From positions 2,896 to 66,895 of the IMG/VR virus record IMGVR_UViG_3300021255_000094: 64,000 bases of DNA; one strand, given 5' to 3'. The notes beneath the pieces are model-generated. The model searched no databases and had not been told where the DNA came from. It saw only the letters and a list, made by a program, of their open reading frames with translations. This stretch comes from a virus. Its lineage: Duplodnaviria > Caudoviricetes. Below are positions 3,253 to 30,404 of the stretch, piece after piece; positions within the stretch are counted from its first letter, which is position 1, and each line of letters begins with the position of its first letter. The translations under genes were made by a program, and so were the position numbers.

Positions 3253-4926
3253 ATGATAACTATAAGAATTGAAAAGAGTGACAGATGTAATGAAGAGTAT
3301 TCAATGTTTATATCGTTTGAATACAATCAGAAGATAGTAGATACAATCAGAAGCTTACCTACAAGATATTGGAACAGCGATGAGAAAGAATGGGAAGTGC
3401 CATTAAAGAAGCTACAATATTTATTAGACAATCTCAGCGACTTTGATTTTGATATTAGCGGTAAGTATGTATCACTTGAAAAGCCTAAAGCAGTTATACC
3501 TAAGAATTTCAAATTTAAGACAGAGCCATATGAGCATCAGATTGAAGGATTCAATTTTGGTTTACAGTATGACAGATGGTTGCTCGGTGATGAAATGGGA
3601 CTAGGTAAGACAAAGCAAGTTATTGATATAGCAGTTGCAAAGAAGCTGGCTAATAAATATGAGCATTGTCTTATCATCTGTGGTGTAAATGGTTTGAAGT
3701 GGAACTGGTATAATGAAGTGCTTACACATTCAGATGAGAAGCCACATATACTAGGTCAGAGAAGAAGAAAGAACGGCAATTTATTCATTGGAAGTGCAAA
3801 TGATAAACTTGAAGATATTGATGATATAAATGAACTACCTTATTTTATCATCACTAATGTTGAGACAATGAGAAATCAAGACATTGTGGAGAAACTTGTT
3901 AAGCTGTGCAAAACTAATAAGATAGGTTTAGTTGCACTTGACGAGTGTCATAAGTGTAAAGACCCTAACTCACAGCAAGGTAAAGGTATGCTCAAGATAA
4001 AAGCACAGACAATGATAGCTATGACTGGAACACCTCTTATGAATACACCGCTTGATTTATATTTCATTCTCAAGTGGCTAGGTTATGAAAGCAATTCATT
4101 CTATAAGTTTAGAAATCACTATTGTGTTATGGGTGGTTTTAATAACTATCAGATAGTATCTTATAAGCATTTAGATGAGTTGCAGGAAAGACTTAATGAC
4201 ATAATGCTTAGAAGATTAAAAGATGATGTTTTAGACTTGCCGGAAAAGATTTATGTTGATGAGTATGTTGAAATGTCAAGTAAGCAAGAAAAGATTTATA
4301 AAGAAGTATCAGCAGAAATCAAAGAGAATATAGATACAATTAAGATGGCTAATAATCCTTTAGCAGAGCTTATCAGAATGAGACAAGCTACTGGTTATAC
4401 TGGTATTCTATCAACTACTATTCAAGAATCAGCAAAGCTTGATAGAATGGAAGAGCTAGTTGAAGAAGCAGTAGAGAGTGGTAAGAAAGTAGTTGTGTTC
4501 TCTAACTGGACTCAAATGACTACACCTATTGCAAAGAGACTTAATAAGTATAACCCAGCAGTTATAACTGGAGAAATAAATGCTGATACAAGACAGCTTA
4601 TGATTGATAAGTTTCAGAATGATAATAAGTGCAAAGTTATAATAGGTACATCTGGAGCTATGGGTACTGGTCTTACACTTACAGCAGGAACAGTTGAGAT
4701 ATTCTTAGATGAGCCTTGGAATATGGCACTTAAAGAACAGTGTGTAGATAGATGTCACAGAATTGGACAGAAGAATAATCTTACTATTTATACTATTATG
4801 TGCAAGGGTACAATAGATGAGCGTGTACACGATATAGTATTATCTAAAGGCGAGTTAAGTAATGCTATTGTAGATGGTGTAATTAAAACAGATAAGTCTC
4901 AGCTATTAGATTTTCTTTTAAGTTGA
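3253..4926 (+). CDS. SNF2/SF2 helicase with HARP-like N-terminal domain
   Basis: LLGDEMGLGKT Walker A, LDECH, MTGTP, DRCHRIGQ motifs; RBS before ATG 3253. Confidence 0.92.
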   Translation: MITIRIEKSDRCNEEYSMFISFEYNQKIVDTIRSLPTRYWNSDEKEWEVPLKKLQYLLDNLSDFDFDISGKYVSLEKPKAVIPKNFKFKTEPYEHQIEGFNFGLQYDRWLLGDEMGLGKTKQVIDIAVAKKLANKYEHCLIICGVNGLKWNWYNEVLTHSDEKPHILGQRRRKNGNLFIGSANDKLEDIDDINELPYFIITNVETMRNQDIVEKLVKLCKTNKIGLVALDECHKCKDPNSQQGKGMLKIKAQTMIAMTGTPLMNTPLDLYFILKWLGYESNSFYKFRNHYCVMGGFNNYQIVSYKHLDELQERLNDIMLRRLKDDVLDLPEKIYVDEYVEMSSKQEKIYKEVSAEIKENIDTIKMANNPLAELIRMRQATGYTGILSTTIQESAKLDRMEELVEEAVESGKKVVVFSNWTQMTTPIAKRLNKYNPAVITGEINADTRQLMIDKFQNDNKCKVIIGTSGAMGTGLTLTAGTVEIFLDEPWNMALKEQCVDRCHRIGQKNNLTIYTIMCKGTIDERVHDIVLSKGELSNAIVDGVIKTDKSQLLDFLLS

Positions 4927-16850: not shown

Positions 16851-16861
16851 GGAGATTGATA

Positions 16862-18412
16862 ATGGCACTATTTGAAATACCAACAAGAAATAATAGTCGA
16901 GAATCAGATAGTAAAATCATTAAGCAATCAAAGACAGTACACAAAGCTACCCCCTCTATAAAAGGGGGTAGTAGTTTACTAGAGAGAATATCCCAAGCGC
17001 AAGATTTAGTAAACCGAAAATTAAGTAAGTATAAAGATAAATATATCTTGATACAAAATGAGCAGATATTACATAATTATATAGATGAATGTATTAAGCA
17101 AGGAGTTATTAGTATAGATACAGAAACTACTGGACTTGACCCACTGTTAGATGATATAGCAGGAATATGTGTTTATACACCTAGTATGCCAGGAGCATAC
17201 ATACCTATCAATCACGTTAGCTATATAACAAATGAAAAGATTGCTAATCAATTAGATGTGGAATATATAAGAGCAGAGTTTGAACGTATTATTAAACCAC
17301 ATATAGATGTGATAATGTTTAATGCAAAGTTTGATATTAGAGTGTTGAGAAATAAAGTTGGTTTACATAATATTTACTGTACTTGGGATTGTTATTTAGC
17401 ACAGCGATTGCTTAATGAGAATGAACCTAGTAATGCTCTTAAAAAGTTGCATCAGAAATATGTGCTTAATGGTAAGGAAGATGCATTTACATTTGAAGAA
17501 CTATTCAAGGGAATACCATTTACAATGATACCTTTACAGACAGCAGTGCTATATGCAGGAAATGACCCAGTTATTACATATGAACTGTATGATTATCAAC
17601 GACAGTTTCTTAGGGAAGATTCTGATAGAGAAGATATGCGAAAATTGTATTGGGTATTGATGAATATAGAAATGCCTTGTGTTGATGCAGTATGTAATAT
17701 GGAAGATAATGGTGTACTCTTTGATATGCAGTATCAACAGATACTATCAGAGAAGTATAATAAGCTACTCACAGACAAGCTAGAAGCGTTTTATAAAGAG
17801 TTAAAGAAGTTTGATGATAAAATAGTCGAGTACAAAGCTAAAACGCAACATAACAAGCTAGATGAGCCTATAAATATAGCAAGCCCTACACAGCTAGCAA
17901 TATTGTTCTATGACATTATAGGTATAGAGGTTATAGATAAAAAGTCACCTAGAGGTACTGGAGTAGAAATATTAAAAAAGATGGATATGCCACTTGCAAA
18001 CACTATACTTGAATATAGAACGGTTGAAAAGCTAATCAGTACATATATTGATAAGTTACCTAATTGCGTAAACCCAAATGATGGAAGAATACATTGTAGC
18101 TTTAATCAATATGGTGCAGACACAGGAAGAATGTCAAGTAGTGACCCTAACTTACAGAATATACCATCACATAATAAAGACATACGAAAGATGTTTATAG
18201 CTTCTAATGAACCCCTTGATATTGTTGAAAGCAACAATAGTTTTACAGTAGATAGATGGATAGAAGTAAAAACATCTAATGGGTGGATTTATGCTGATAA
18301 AATAGAGGTTGGAGACAGCTTGGTTGTAGAAGAAAACGACACTCAATTAGAGATTATTGTTACCAAGATAGATAATCGTGTTGACAATAATCAGATAATA
18401 TTATATTATTAA
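16862..18412 (+). CDS. polA: Family A DNA polymerase N-terminal fragment (3'-5' exonuclease, thumb, start of palm) with Hint-like C-terminal tail
   Basis: SIDTETTGLD, FNAKFD, YAGND exonuclease motifs; GADTGRMSSSDPNLQNIP; stops before motif A. Confidence 0.9.
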   Translation: MALFEIPTRNNSRESDSKIIKQSKTVHKATPSIKGGSSLLERISQAQDLVNRKLSKYKDKYILIQNEQILHNYIDECIKQGVISIDTETTGLDPLLDDIAGICVYTPSMPGAYIPINHVSYITNEKIANQLDVEYIRAEFERIIKPHIDVIMFNAKFDIRVLRNKVGLHNIYCTWDCYLAQRLLNENEPSNALKKLHQKYVLNGKEDAFTFEELFKGIPFTMIPLQTAVLYAGNDPVITYELYDYQRQFLREDSDREDMRKLYWVLMNIEMPCVDAVCNMEDNGVLFDMQYQQILSEKYNKLLTDKLEAFYKELKKFDDKIVEYKAKTQHNKLDEPINIASPTQLAILFYDIIGIEVIDKKSPRGTGVEILKKMDMPLANTILEYRTVEKLISTYIDKLPNCVNPNDGRIHCSFNQYGADTGRMSSSDPNLQNIPSHNKDIRKMFIASNEPLDIVESNNSFTVDRWIEVKTSNGWIYADKIEVGDSLVVEENDTQLEIIVTKIDNRVDNNQIILYY

Positions 18413-18415
18413 GAT

Positions 18416-19123
18416 ATGATTATATATAAAGCAACAAACAAGATAAATGGTAAATGTTATATAGGGCAAACTCGACATTCTATTGAGTATCGTAAGCGCA
18501 GACATTTATCGTGTGCTAGGAAAGGAGTTAAAACTAATTTTTATAAAGCCATTCGTAAATATGGAGAAGATAATTTTGAATGGGAAATAATATGTAGCAC
18601 TAATGATAAACAGAAACTCAATGAACTAGAAACTTTCTATATAACAAAATATGACAGCATTAAAAATGGCTATAATATGATTGATGGCGGAGATAATAAT
18701 ATTATGGACATTGAGAGTGTTAAAACTAAACACGATAAAGTTATGCGTAGTTCCGAAGTGCGTAAAAAGATTTCAAATACAATGAAAAATAAGATTGCTA
18801 ATGGAGAATTTTTTACACCTGAACATAGAAAGAAGTTATCTGAAAAAGCAAAGGGTAATCATAATTTTGGCAGTGGTGATACACGCTCAATAGGATGTTA
18901 TTGTGTTCTTGAGGACGGCACAAAATATGAGTTTCATTCATATAGGGATGCTTGGAAGTGGTGGTTAACTATTGATAACCCATTTGATACAGATACAGAA
19001 TGTGTGTATCAGCGAAAAATAAAACAAAGTATAGAATGTGGATATTATACATATCATTATAATCGTAATAAAATTAAGTATGAATATCCAAAGTGGTTTA
19101 GAAAGGAGTGTGATGCTGAATGA
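18416..19123 (+). mobile_element. Free-standing GIY-YIG homing endonuclease gene between polymerase halves
   Basis: MIIYKATNKINGKCYIGQT, E..YI, GYN, NUMOD3-like TPEHRKKLSEKAKG. Confidence 0.9.
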
Positions 19124-20097
19124 AAAAGTTACTAGCTAGGAGAAACTATGTTCTTATGTCTAGTGACTATTCTTAGTCACAGCAAGAACCTAAATGTTTA
19201 GCGGCTTTGTGTAGAATGAATGGAGATTCACAGATGTATGATACATTTATGCAGGGTAAGGACTTGTATTCAGAGATAGCAAGTAAAGCATTTAATAAAC
19301 CTTATGAAGAGTGTCTTGAGTTTAATAAAGATGGAACTACTAATAAACAAGGTAAAGAACGTAGAACACAAGCTAAAAGTATTCTGTTAGGAGTGTTATA
19401 TGGCAGAGGTGTACCATCAATAGCAGAGCAGTTGAATTGTACAGTTGAAAAAGCACAAGCTATAAAAGACAGTGTATTCAGAGGTTTTCCAGCTATTAAG
19501 AAGTTTGAAAAAGATTCTTTAGCTATGGGCGAAGAGTTAGGTTATGTAACTACAATCTCAGGACGTAAGAGAAGATTACCAGCACTTCAATTAGATGAAT
19601 ATGAGTTTAAGTGGAAGAACGGTGTAGCTCCTGATAATGATTTATTAGACTTTGACTCAGATGCAGAGCAAGAGATTCCAGAGAGAACTATCAGAAAATA
19701 TCTTACAAAGTTACATAATTGTAGATTTAATGAGAAGCGCAAGATATTTGAGCAAGCGAATGAAGAGGGTATATGGATAGTAGATAATGGAGCAAAGATA
19801 GCAGAAGCAGTTAGACAGACTGTAAATGCACGTATTCAAGGAAGTGCGGCAGACCTAACAAAGCTTGCTATGATAGAGCTTAATAATAATCAGAAGCTAA
19901 AAGACTTAGGATTCAGACTACTTATACCAGTACACGATGAGATAATAGCAGAGTGTCCAGAAGAGAATGTCAAAGAATGTTCTAAATTACTAGCAGATAC
20001 AATGTCAAAAGCGGCGGAAAGGATACTAGAAATGCCTATTAAGTGTGATGTGACCATTACAAAAGAATGGTATGGAGAGGAGATAGTATATGAATAA
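19120..20097 (+). CDS. polA: Family A DNA polymerase C-terminal fragment; in-frame TAG at 19174-19176 inside motif A
   Basis: AAGGAG RBS and ATGA overlap at 19120; MKKLLARRNYVLMSSDYS*SQQEPK; motif B RTQAKSILLGVLYG; IQGSAADLTK; motif C VHDE. Confidence 0.85.
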
Positions 20098-27496: not shown

Positions 27497-27511
27497 TAGG
27501 AGTTGAAAACA

Positions 27512-28069
27512 ATGATTAGAATGTTAGATAATTGGAAAGGTGCTGTTGAAATAGACGGCACTGAGTATAAATCAATTCAAGAAGCTAGAAGCGTTTTAAA
27601 TGCAATTAGCGATGATATACATATAATTCTCAAGTCTAACAATAAAAACGCAAATATGAAGCGCACAGAAGCGTTAAATGACGTTTCAGACAAAGAGCAA
27701 GAGTATGAAATCACAGTTAAGAAGTATATGACTCAGCAAGCTACACCTAGTTTCGATTTTATGATGAAGTGGAATGATAACAACCCGATGCCTATGAGAA
27801 TTATGCAAGGCACAGTTGAAAAAGAAACAAGAGGTATGGTGTATATGAAACTACACGGAATGGCAAGACCTACAATAACTTGTTTCTGTTGTGGAAAAGA
27901 GCTTACAAACCCCATATCAAGAAAATATGGTATTGGACCTATCTGTTTAGGCAAGATGGGTATAGCAAGAGATATTGATGATGTAGAGGGTATAAGTGAA
28001 GAACTTGTAAATATTTCTTGGGAAGGCTGGATTATTAAATCAGCAATCACTGAGAAAAAAGCAATATAA
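27512..28069 (+). CDS. DUF6011-like zinc-binding protein
   Basis: CFCCGKELTNPISRKYGIGPIC. Confidence 0.7.
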   Translation: MIRMLDNWKGAVEIDGTEYKSIQEARSVLNAISDDIHIILKSNNKNANMKRTEALNDVSDKEQEYEITVKKYMTQQATPSFDFMMKWNDNNPMPMRIMQGTVEKETRGMVYMKLHGMARPTITCFCCGKELTNPISRKYGIGPICLGKMGIARDIDDVEGISEELVNISWEGWIIKSAITEKKAI

Positions 28070-28096
28070 ATAAACTATAAAAAGGAGAACAAAAGT

Positions 28097-28645
28097 ATGA
28101 ATAACAATGGTGCGGGTGCAGTGTATGTACCAATTAAGGTTGATGTTTTATGGAGTGCAATTAAGAGTTCAGGCATAACAGCAGGAAATCTAGCGACAAT
28201 GGTATTGAACAGAGATAAGTCATATCTCACCACAGTTAAGACACGAGGCACAATGGTTAAAGAAGATTTGGAAAAGCTGTGTACTTTCTTATCAGTAAAT
28301 ATTGATGATGTGCTGATTAAGGAAGAAAAGCCAGTAGTTAAAGAATCAGTTAAGCCAGCATCTAATCAGTCAGCTAACGCACAGCTTGATATGTTGATAG
28401 TTGGACTTAACAAGATGTATGAAGCACAGAAATTGCAGAATGAGACACTAGCTAATCTACTTATTGAAGTAAAAGCTGGAAATGCAAAAACTAATAGACT
28501 AGAAAATGCACTAGGTCAGATAATACCAAATCTAATTCAGATTAAAACAACAGTGGATAACAGCAGAGATTTGATTAGAGATATTAAATCAACTGGAGCA
28601 ACTATTAGTGGAAGACTCAGAGATTTGATAGGTAAGTTTAAATGA
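28097..28645 (+). CDS. Hypothetical protein, possible N-terminal HTH plus coiled coil
   Basis: AAAGGAG RBS; LEKLCTFLSVNIDDVL resembles Cro/C1-type HTH end. Confidence 0.6.
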   Translation: MNNNGAGAVYVPIKVDVLWSAIKSSGITAGNLATMVLNRDKSYLTTVKTRGTMVKEDLEKLCTFLSVNIDDVLIKEEKPVVKESVKPASNQSANAQLDMLIVGLNKMYEAQKLQNETLANLLIEVKAGNAKTNRLENALGQIIPNLIQIKTTVDNSRDLIRDIKSTGATISGRLRDLIGKFK

Positions 28646-28689
28646 AGAAATTAAGACCTACTAGATTTTACTCAAATAAACCTACTTGA
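28642..28689 (+). pseudogene. Orphaned original N-terminus of the resolvase gene
   Basis: ATGA-coupled MKKLRPTRFYSNKPT*, matching MIVRRSNRFYSSRQ at 29530. Confidence 0.7.
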
Positions 28690-28714
28690 TTTTATTCATA
28701 GATTGATTTATAAT
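28686..28714 (+). promoter_or_regulatory. Promoter of GIY-YIG gene
   Basis: TTGATT(28686)-17 nt-TATAAT(28709). Confidence 0.65.
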
Positions 28715-28742
28715 ATAGTCATATAAGAAAGGAGATTATATT

Positions 28743-29549
28743 ATGTATGGGTATATTTATAAAACAACAAATCTTGTAAATGGTAAAATCTATGTTGGTC
28801 AAAAAAAATCAAGCAAGTTTTTGGGTAATAAGTATTTAGGAAGTGGAAAATATTTAAAATGTGCAATTAAACATTATGGCGAGAATAGTTTTGCAGTTAG
28901 TTTAATATGTGTGGCTGAATCAAAAGATGAATTAGATGAACTTGAAAAATACTACATTAAAAAATTTAATGCCAATGACCACGATGTTGGATATAATATA
29001 GCACTCGGAGCAGTTGGTGGTGACACTTATACTAATTTATCTGATTATGATAAACAACTACGAAATGAGAGATATAGTAATTCTCGGAAAGCAAATATCA
29101 ACACTTATGTCGCTATACATAAAGGTAAAGAAAATAAGCGTATTGAAATATCCTTATTAGAATCATATTTACGAAATGGGTGGGAAAGAGGTAGAAGTAG
29201 TGATTGGCAGAAAAAATTGGACAGCTCACATAAAGGAATTAAACAGTCTGATGAATGGATTAAAAAGCGTGTAAATTCAGGATGGAAAAATAAATCACCT
29301 GATGAGTATGCAGAAATGGTGCAAAAACATAGAGAGTCCGCAATTCGTCAGATGGCAAATACTCCTAAAGATGAGCGAATAAAACGAGCAAGAAATGCCA
29401 ATAAGTTTAAGGGTCATAAATGCTGTTTTGTTAATAACGGAATTGAGATGCACTTTATTTATGAAGAGGATTTACAAGATTATCTCAATAATGGCTATGA
29501 ATTAGGTATGTTAAAGAGGAGTAGTAACAATGATAGTGAGAAGAAGTAA
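28743..29549 (+). mobile_element. GIY-YIG homing endonuclease gene
   Basis: MYGYIYKTTNLVNGKIYVGQK, YLGSG, EKYYI, GYNIA motifs. Confidence 0.9.
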
Positions 29550-29874
29550 TAGATTTTATTCCAGCAGACAAGAAAAAGCAGTAGCTAAAGCTATCAGAGG
29601 CAAACAAGTCTCTAACAGTGGAGCAACAGCTTTTAACAAGGGAGATGTAACCACAGATAAGTTTTTAATTGAAGCAAAGACGTGCATTTCGGAAAAGAAG
29701 TCATTTAGTATCAAGAAAGAATGGCTTGAGAAGAACAAGGAAGAAGCATTTGAAATGGGGAAAGAATACAGTGTGTTAGCATTTAATTTTGGTCCAGATA
29801 CTAAGAACTATTATGTTATAGATGAAAGACTTTTTACTTTGTTACAAGAGTTATTAGAAAAGGAGGATATGTAA
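29530..29874 (+). CDS. PD-(D/E)XK Holliday junction resolvase-like protein
   Basis: QEKAVAK...NSGA...KGDV...LIEAKT. Confidence 0.75.
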   Translation: MIVRRSNRFYSSRQEKAVAKAIRGKQVSNSGATAFNKGDVTTDKFLIEAKTCISEKKSFSIKKEWLEKNKEEAFEMGKEYSVLAFNFGPDTKNYYVIDERLFTLLQELLEKEDM

Positions 29875-29875
29875 G

Positions 29876-30190
29876 ATGAGTAAGAGATTTTCAGCAGTAT
29901 TTGTAAGGTTTTATAATGATGACCCAAAAGCTAGGGTATATATGTTTGAAGCACCTTATTATAATCGTATTGAAGTGGGAGATATGGTTACAGTAGAAAA
30001 TGAAGGTAAACTAGAAGCACAAGTTGTAGCAATAGAAGATTTAGACTTAGAGTATTCTACAGACAGAAAGCAGTTTGAATTATTACAGAAAGTAACTGGA
30101 GCAGAGTTACCACTTAAAAAAGTATTATCAGTCATTAAAGAAACTAAGATAGAATATGAGGAGGACAAAGAAGATGGAGAAAACGAATAA
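29876..30190 (+). CDS. Hypothetical protein
   Basis: ORF track. Confidence 0.7.
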   Translation: MSKRFSAVFVRFYNDDPKARVYMFEAPYYNRIEVGDMVTVENEGKLEAQVVAIEDLDLEYSTDRKQFELLQKVTGAELPLKKVLSVIKETKIEYEEDKEDGENE

Positions 30191-30404
30191 GACAAAGGAA
30201 GTATTGAACTATCTTAAAGAGAAAGGTTCAATAACAAGTATGGAAGCTATTAACGAGTTTGGAGCAACTAGATTATCAGCTATTATATTTAATCTAAGAA
30301 AGCATTACGACATAGAGACTATTGAAATGGTATGCAACGATAGATATGGACGTGAATGTCATTTTGCAAGATATACTTATAAAGGAGAAATAGAGAATGG
30401 CTAA
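30174..30404 (+). CDS. Small winged-HTH protein
   Basis: VLNYLKEKGSITSMEA...FGATRLSAIIFNLRK. Confidence 0.75.
   Translation: MEKTNKTKEVLNYLKEKGSITSMEAINEFGATRLSAIIFNLRKHYDIETIEMVCNDRYGRECHFARYTYKGEIENG

Follow-up and report, generated by a model that had tools for sequence, protein, structure and literature searches.

A free-standing GIY-YIG endonuclease gene and a replacement gene start at a resolvase-like locus of ruminant-gut phages

How can a homing endonuclease gene occupy the first codons of another gene and leave that gene readable? For essential genes the textbook answers are the intron and the intein, which let a homing endonuclease stay without breaking the gene. The question is raised by a locus in the replication module of an uncultured ruminant-gut phage, which we analysed as a stretch of 64,000 nt (the window) and which lies near a RecA-like gene, a DUF6011 gene, clamp-loader genes and a split PolA; related sequence is present in bovine, goat and rumen gut metagenomes. 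We are confident in reading the locus as a free-standing GIY-YIG homing endonuclease cassette placed within the first codons of a resolvase-like gene, an arrangement that needs neither intron nor intein. Its features, in window coordinates, are these:

28097-28645, + strand: upstream gene of 182 aa, of no family, whose stop codon overlaps the old resolvase start
28642-28689, + strand: stub, the stranded original resolvase start, MKKLRPTRFYSNK followed by PT and TGA
28681-28694, + strand: second, mutated copy of the target, CCTACTTGATTTTA (AGA to TGA), from the alignment and repeat family
28686-28714, + strand: promoter-like site for the endonuclease, TTGATT, 17 nt, TATAAT
28743-29549, + strand: GIY-YIG homing endonuclease gene (predicted), 268 aa, intact (PF01541, phrog_314)
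29513-29521, + strand: ribosome-binding site (RBS) AAGAGGAG for the new resolvase start, within the 3' tail of the endonuclease gene
29530-29559, + strand: element-borne replacement start MIVRRSNRFY
29560-29595, + strand: right co-conversion tract, 18/36 positions unlike the endonuclease-free relative L001
29530-29874, + strand: Hjc-like PD-(D/E)xK resolvase-like gene, 114 aa (phrog_2002)
28671-29595, + strand: whole 925-nt segment replacing 37 nt of the endonuclease-free allele (comparison with L001 and with a contig of run X4)

The ATG at 28642 overlaps the TGA of the 182-aa ORF (ATGA, 28642-28645) and opens an ORF of 15 codons, reading MKKLRPTRFYSNKPT up to the TGA at 28687-28689, whose homology to the native gene stops after codon 13. 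The final 20 nt of the endonuclease ORF overlap the new resolvase ORF, which begins MIVRRSNRFYSSRQEK and is preceded by the AAGAGGAG site 8 nt upstream. The 114-aa gene is chimaeric, combining the start brought by the element with the body of the resident gene.

Every feature named in a preliminary description of this DNA is present in the sequence. The old start is coupled to the upstream stop and cut off after 13 codons, as described there, and the codons of the RFYS block do differ between TTT TAC TCA and TTT TAT TCC. A 15-nt repeat noted at the left junction is found at 28656-28670 and 28680-28694 with one mismatch. The RFYS block, described as duplicated, is present in three copies, a 19-nt block around RFYS being found at 28656, 28680 and 29544, so that the 15-mers are the first two copies; the second of these is no junction artefact but belongs to the mobile unit. 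Taken alone, the pair of 15-mers is not significant (2 matches against 0.51 expected, with 8 of 100 shuffles reaching 2), and the weight of the case rests on related genomes. Another direct repeat, of 29 nt and 76% identical, lies at 28564-28646 in the 3' end of the 182-aa gene (RDLIRDIK / RDLIGKFK) and may be a coiled-coil repeat or a chance occurrence.

The gene between the two starts is predicted to encode a GIY-YIG homing endonuclease of the free-standing, Seg-like kind. Its product matches Pfam PF01541 at 28.4 bits (cut-off 22.6) and phrog_314 'homing endonuclease' at 1.8e-29. Residues 4-92 align by profile to the I-TevI catalytic domain 1LN0 (E 0.007), with the YIY, IYVG, LEKYYI and GYNIA segments in register (conserved Tyr, Tyr, Glu and Asn); a counterpart to Arg27 of I-TevI is hard to make out in this alignment. 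Orthologues at 54-92% amino acid identity share 61 invariant columns. We considered and rejected carriage by a group I or group II intron or an intein: the region 28000-30300 matches no Rfam family (E up to 1), the endonuclease gene comes with an RBS and a stop codon of its own, and the target restarts at its own ATG. The CNNNG motif of I-TevI-style cleavage, sought by eye in the native target, is not consistently present.

Megablast with 27500-30400 as query found nothing in the phage collection, and tblastn against the same collection yielded only relatives at ≤51% identity. A query of IMG/VR with the endonuclease returned only distant paralogues, ≤58% identical over the catalytic domain, and a scan of JGI metagenomes with an endonuclease profile returned one orthologue, at locus L118. 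The exact 16-mer AACCTACTTGATTTTA has 24 matches in IMG/VR, which we ascribe to chance because none adjoins this endonuclease or a resolvase.

Further endonuclease genes were seen in the window and in related sequences. A second GIY-YIG gene of the window (18416-19123, within 16856-20097) splits PolA just before motif A and is 37% identical to the resolvase-associated endonuclease over the catalytic domain; the C-terminal half of this PolA reads MSSDYS, TAG, SQQEPK..., an in-frame amber codon inside the DYSQ motif. L024 has a further GIY-YIG/NUMOD3 gene (3572-4213) after its clamp-loader genes. In the P0134 context an HNH_3 gene stands directly 5' of the resolvase-associated GIY-YIG gene, making tandem endonucleases. 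The gene order in the P0134 and P0140 contexts fits that of the window, with the endonuclease followed by an ORF of 113 or 125 aa (and then, for P0140, by HTH_39).

An allele without the endonuclease is found in three IMG/VR contigs (L001-3), in which the resolvase-like gene (113 aa) opens with an ATG overlapping the upstream stop and reads MKKLRPTRFYSDKQEK without interruption; a contiguous start of this kind, coupled to the upstream stop, had been predicted in the preliminary description. The 182-aa upstream protein of the window is 97.8% identical to that of L001-3, and the left flank is 96.3% identical to L001 over 1.4 kb. The last 52 nt of this flank (28619-28670) are exactly those of L001, ending ...AGATTTTA of Arg-Phe-Tyr, after which the sequences diverge. 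On the right side, 18 of 36 positions differ from L001 in 29560-29595, and identity is then about 93% until about 29760. The resolvase 3' end and the following genes differ between window 29760-30190 and L001 4220-4741; this mosaic boundary near 29760 is a separate one, unrelated to the endonuclease.

The same empty allele was assembled from the gut metagenome of another study (run X4), as a 410-nt endonuclease-free contig of depth 51. It is identical to the window over 28619-28670 and also covers 29596-29765, with the joint at 28670/29596 and, between the two parts, 37 letters of L001-type codons. A total of 925 nt of the window (28671-29595) therefore stand in place of 37 nt in the empty allele. 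The site is polymorphic for presence and absence among close relatives, with co-conversion of the flanks and tract limits at 28670 and 29596, limits that are approximate because L001 is a close relative and not the actual recipient.

The cassette recurs in other phages. Six further phage backgrounds carry orthologous endonucleases (54-99% identity) in the layout of the window, and a seventh, a contig fragment (L085), holds only the endonuclease tail and the new start. The full layout is seen in L086, L087-90, L091-93, L118 and L198, while L024 and L084 are cut at the left. Wherever the left side is visible the order is the same: stub, the block CCTACTTGATTTTA, TATAAT 16-17 nt further on, GGAG, endonuclease and overlapping new start. 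The most divergent cassette is that of L198, in which the endonuclease is 54% identical and the 14-mer block is degenerate. Counterparts of the stub stand at the same place in seven other loci (L086, L087, L091, L118, L023, L083 and L198), and the stubs are specific to their backgrounds, as in MGNIRPTRFYSNK, MGLKPTRFYSDK, MNRPTRFYSR and MKRPTRWYSK.

The replaced end also has a history discordant with that of the rest of the gene. Among seven loci with RRSN starts the first 30 nt of the new ORF are identical at 25-30 of 30 positions, against 68-88% identity over nt 91-300, and between L084 and the window the endonuclease is 98.7% identical at the nucleotide level, against 74.5% for the resolvase body. 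Run X4, the source of the empty contig, also contains a 7-kb endonuclease-bearing contig from another background (stub MNRPT...) that matches the window only over 28654-29559, a span of about 0.9 kb bounded by the stub's Arg codon and the new start's Tyr codon; donor and recipient forms thus occur together in one gut sample. The endonuclease-bearing form was assembled independently from runs X2 and X3 as well. Where the stub of the window reads TCA AAT, that of X3 has retained AGT GAT, the L001-type codons, and the left crossover therefore differs between near-identical backgrounds. Such patterns across backgrounds bear the signature of homing that has happened repeatedly and with short conversion tracts. 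We also considered an assembly artefact, which we reject because runs from other studies independently assemble the endonuclease-bearing arrangement.

Two loci that are close relatives of each other, L023 and L083, are without the endonuclease and have kept both the stub (MMKPTRFYSNK in L023, MMKSTRFYSNK in L083) and the new start (MMTRRSN and MIVRRSN, respectively). In L023 the stub joins directly to the last 13 codons of the endonuclease; in L083 a GATT microhomology links CCTACTTGATT with what is left of the endonuclease gene, its last ~70 nt. Both scars retain the RBS AAGAGGAG. As the end-points differ, the deletions are independent, and the two loci are best read as separate losses of the endonuclease that left the new start at the emptied site. 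P0108, a resolvase homologue of 134 aa, is extended at its N-terminus (..NGFILNVLERNGEREK) by sequence similar to the ..GFILGM.. tail that ends endonucleases P0143 and P0144, and may be another deletion scar, fused in frame.

The preliminary description proposed that the endonuclease was inserted together with a replacement N-terminus, and named endonuclease-free relatives with a MIVRRS start as the observation that would speak against this. The proposal is supported, in that the new start travels with the endonuclease. Taken formally, L022, L023 and L083 are relatives of the named kind; L023 and L083 do not count against the proposal because they keep the stub and the endonuclease 3' tail and differ in their deletion end-points, which makes them secondary losses. 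L022 is an ambiguous case. Here MIVRRSN follows directly after a DUF6011 gene, with neither stub nor endonuclease tail. L022 may be one more recombinant, or it may point to an origin of MIVRRSN as a natural allele, one that the element could have captured and that selection did not shape.

To what extent is the new start set apart from the one it replaces? Among the 120 resolvase-like homologues listed, about 100 begin M..(R/K)PTRFYS and seven begin M[IM][VT]RRSNRFYS on clearly different bodies. All 12 close endonuclease-free alleles have (R/K)-CCN-ACN before AGA TTT TAY, two distant ones have TCT ACA at that place, and the element-linked starts have AGT AAT (RRSN, KYSN, HYSN) or AAT ACA (FNT). 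All seven Ser-Asn starts with an examined context stand at loci that have the endonuclease or a remnant of it or, in the case of L022, the element's start alone; none of 15 Pro-Thr-start loci carries an endonuclease, a remnant or an element start (exact test 6e-6, for loci that are not phylogenetically independent). Natural Ser-Thr and Pro-Asn variants do occur in endonuclease-free genes, and the L198 new start, MMNKYPTRFYS (codons TAT CCA ACA), keeps Pro-Thr, which makes the Ser-Asn rule lineage-specific. The 'synonymous recoding' of the preliminary description is only partly apt: codons of the RFYS block do differ synonymously, and the consistent change is the non-synonymous one from Pro-Thr to Ser-Asn.

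The new copy restores an unbroken RFYS..QEK, and everything 3' of Tyr10 is background-specific, so that only codons 1-7 could spare the host genome from the enzyme. We infer from this, and from the association of Ser-Asn or Asn-Thr starts with the element, that immunity would come from the change of Pro-Thr to Ser-Asn. Within some new starts the target block is repeated in tandem (MTRPTRF-NTRFYS for L091, 3912-3965, and MNKPTRF-STRYYS for P0112), which may be the trace of repeated rounds of replacement.

The target gene matches phrog_2002 'Holliday junction resolvase' at 7e-29, and its D39, E48 and K50 (D39...E48-x-K50) are invariant. It has no Pfam match, and a PDB search with its sequence profile returned nothing. 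The top Foldseek matches of its AlphaFold (AF2) model (pLDDT 76.5) are archaeal Hjc/Hje, and as these are weak (TM ~0.5, E 6e-3) we call the protein resolvase-like. Residues 1-6 of the model are disordered (pLDDT <50), and the swap leaves in place four invariant residues, R8, S11, Q14 and E15; the protein therefore probably tolerates the change of start without harm.

The middle block CCTACTTGATTTTA departs from the native target at a single position (AGA to TGA; 13/14 nt identical), a change that both ends the stub ORF and turns TAGATT into TTGATT, a -35 box. TTGATT-17-TATAAT has 10/12 matches to a promoter as a sequence, and both hexamers are kept at a spacing of 16-17 nt in the other cassettes, with diverged spacers. 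It is presumably this promoter that the endonuclease uses. In six cassettes the 14-mer, TATAAT and GGAG are invariant while the spacers and endonucleases have diverged to 66-92% nucleotide identity. CCTAC, which lies 5' of the -35 box, is conserved too, and since conservation of the 14-mer thus extends beyond the box, a simple promoter is insufficient as an explanation. By analogy with I-TevI, the 14-mer could be a target-like operator, a possibility that we offer as a lead. As to its origin, we conjecture descent from an earlier host gene start of the MNKPTRFYS type, joined via a shared AAT AAA.

We propose a cycle that would join what is observed: the architecture, the existence of the empty allele, the spread of the cassette over several backgrounds, the shortness of the conversion tracts and the separate losses. 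The enzyme would cut the intact allele M..(R/K)PTRFYS..QEK of a co-infecting phage, at a position that we place somewhere from about codon 5 to codon 22. The left break end would pair with the donor's stub, which would act as the left homology arm of the element, and the right end with the donor's resolvase body. Repair synthesis would then copy promoter, endonuclease and new start into the recipient, whose own first codons would remain as a new stub, and the respelled start MIVRRSNRFY with its RBS would run on in frame into the resident gene at about codon 10-22. The resolvase gene would in this way regain a start that the enzyme does not cut, with no part for RNA or protein splicing.

A stronger version of this proposal makes the cassette a self-contained 'home-and-rescue' drive, in which the stub is an obligatory portable arm, the 14-mer a self-repression operator and the start variants the record of an arms race. 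We put this forward tentatively, as a reading with rather less than an even chance of being right. If it held, the stub arm would admit the cassette to any phage with a resolvase-like gene, whatever its upstream neighbours, and the RRSN, KYSN, HYSN, FNT and KYPT starts, each with its own endonuclease lineage, would record a contest between cutting specificity and respelling.

The same locus could be explained more sparingly by an ordinary free-standing endonuclease, with the stub and the 14-mer as inert debris of one old illegitimate insertion and the start as a donor's natural allele that was co-converted without selection. Co-conversion of flanks is normal for free-standing endonucleases, as in the T4 seg and mob genes, and this account would also accommodate the natural variation at the Pro-Thr codons, the MIVRRSN of L022 that has no stub, and L198, with its Pro-Thr start and decayed 14-mer. 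It fares worse with the restored RFYS..QEK, which means that insertion alone cannot protect, and with the confinement of element-specific differences to codons 1-7. Debris would also hardly keep the 14-mer, TATAAT and GGAG invariant in six otherwise diverged cassettes, and the stub is present in every cassette with a visible left side, its first codons background-specific as expected of a recombination arm. On balance we think this account unlikely. A still simpler idea, that the endonuclease is inactive or domesticated and the arrangement inherited only vertically, could appeal to the lack of an obvious Arg27 equivalent, but we judge it highly improbable given the intact ORFs and the invariant columns of the diverged orthologues. 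Strict vertical descent is also at odds with presence and absence among genomes ~96% identical, with a near-identical endonuclease on the dissimilar resolvase body of L084, and with crossover points that vary in near-identical backgrounds and both forms in one sample. We therefore retain the homing cassette as our reading.

Under this reading the start of a gene is horizontally exchangeable independently of its body. It would account for small orphan ORFs and for unusual N-terminal variants of phage core genes, features by which gene callers and pangenome clustering are misled. At ~0.9 kb, the cassette is also a compact natural template for marker-free insertion into phage genomes.

Among phage elements, the closest parallels are the T4 Seg and Mob proteins of 'intronless homing', encoded by GIY-YIG or HNH genes that spread by double-strand-break repair. 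The cassette shares with them a phage-borne endonuclease gene, the logic of homing and the co-conversion of flanks, but Seg and Mob genes are intergenic or divide a gene into two subunits. The mobA/gene 60 cassette reportedly moves with sequence that keeps its split target functional. To our knowledge, no Seg or Mob gene has been described that comes with a duplicated and respelled start of its target gene and leaves a stub stranded, and the literature that we searched contained no case of such a start in a phage. In the autorepression of I-TevI, a target-like sequence is said to overlap the endonuclease's own promoter; the 14-mer likewise lies over the cassette's own promoter, a likeness that here consists in sequence resemblance (13/14 nt to the native target).

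Closer in principle are elements that replace the end of a gene, so far documented for 3' ends, in fungal mitochondria and yeasts. The mORFs of fungal mitochondria form hybrids at atp6 of Allomyces macrogynus and at atp6, atp9, cox2 and nad3 of Glomus (Beaudet et al. 2013, PMC3630166). They likewise combine a free-standing LAGLIDADG or GIY-YIG ORF in a coding region with a diverged duplicate end, the native end being an unexpressed remnant (PMC3630166). The mORFs reside in organelle genomes, exchange the C-terminus and frequently share the reading frame of the host gene, whereas the cassette described here replaces the N-terminus, in separate frames that overlap by 20 nt, in a phage genome. 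WHO elements of Torulaspora and Lachancea home into FBA1 with an endonuclease gene and a resistance-conferring FBA1 3' end (PMC7282813, Coughlan et al. 2020), and the leftover FBA1 fragment serves as a recombination arm (PMC7282813). In both WHO and the phage cassette the target gene's end is carried, the displaced end persists as a fragment, and the target becomes chimaeric without splicing (PMC7282813). WHO differs in acting on the 3' end of a nuclear gene in meiotic diploids with an intein-like LAGLIDADG/zinc-finger enzyme, against a 5' end and a GIY-YIG enzyme in the phage, and the phage element, unlike WHO, has to bring a promoter, an RBS and a start codon as well.

The phage locus has the traits of such end-replacing elements, namely a diverged end in frame with the resident gene, a displaced end that is kept and a discordant history, and it adds empty, occupied and decayed states (the last as two independent scars) as well as a conserved target-like promoter block. 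The phage cassette is thus the 5' mirror image of the mORF and WHO elements, and illustrates a third way, beside intron and intein, for an endonuclease to live in a gene: to carry a spare, presumably uncuttable, copy of the gene's end.
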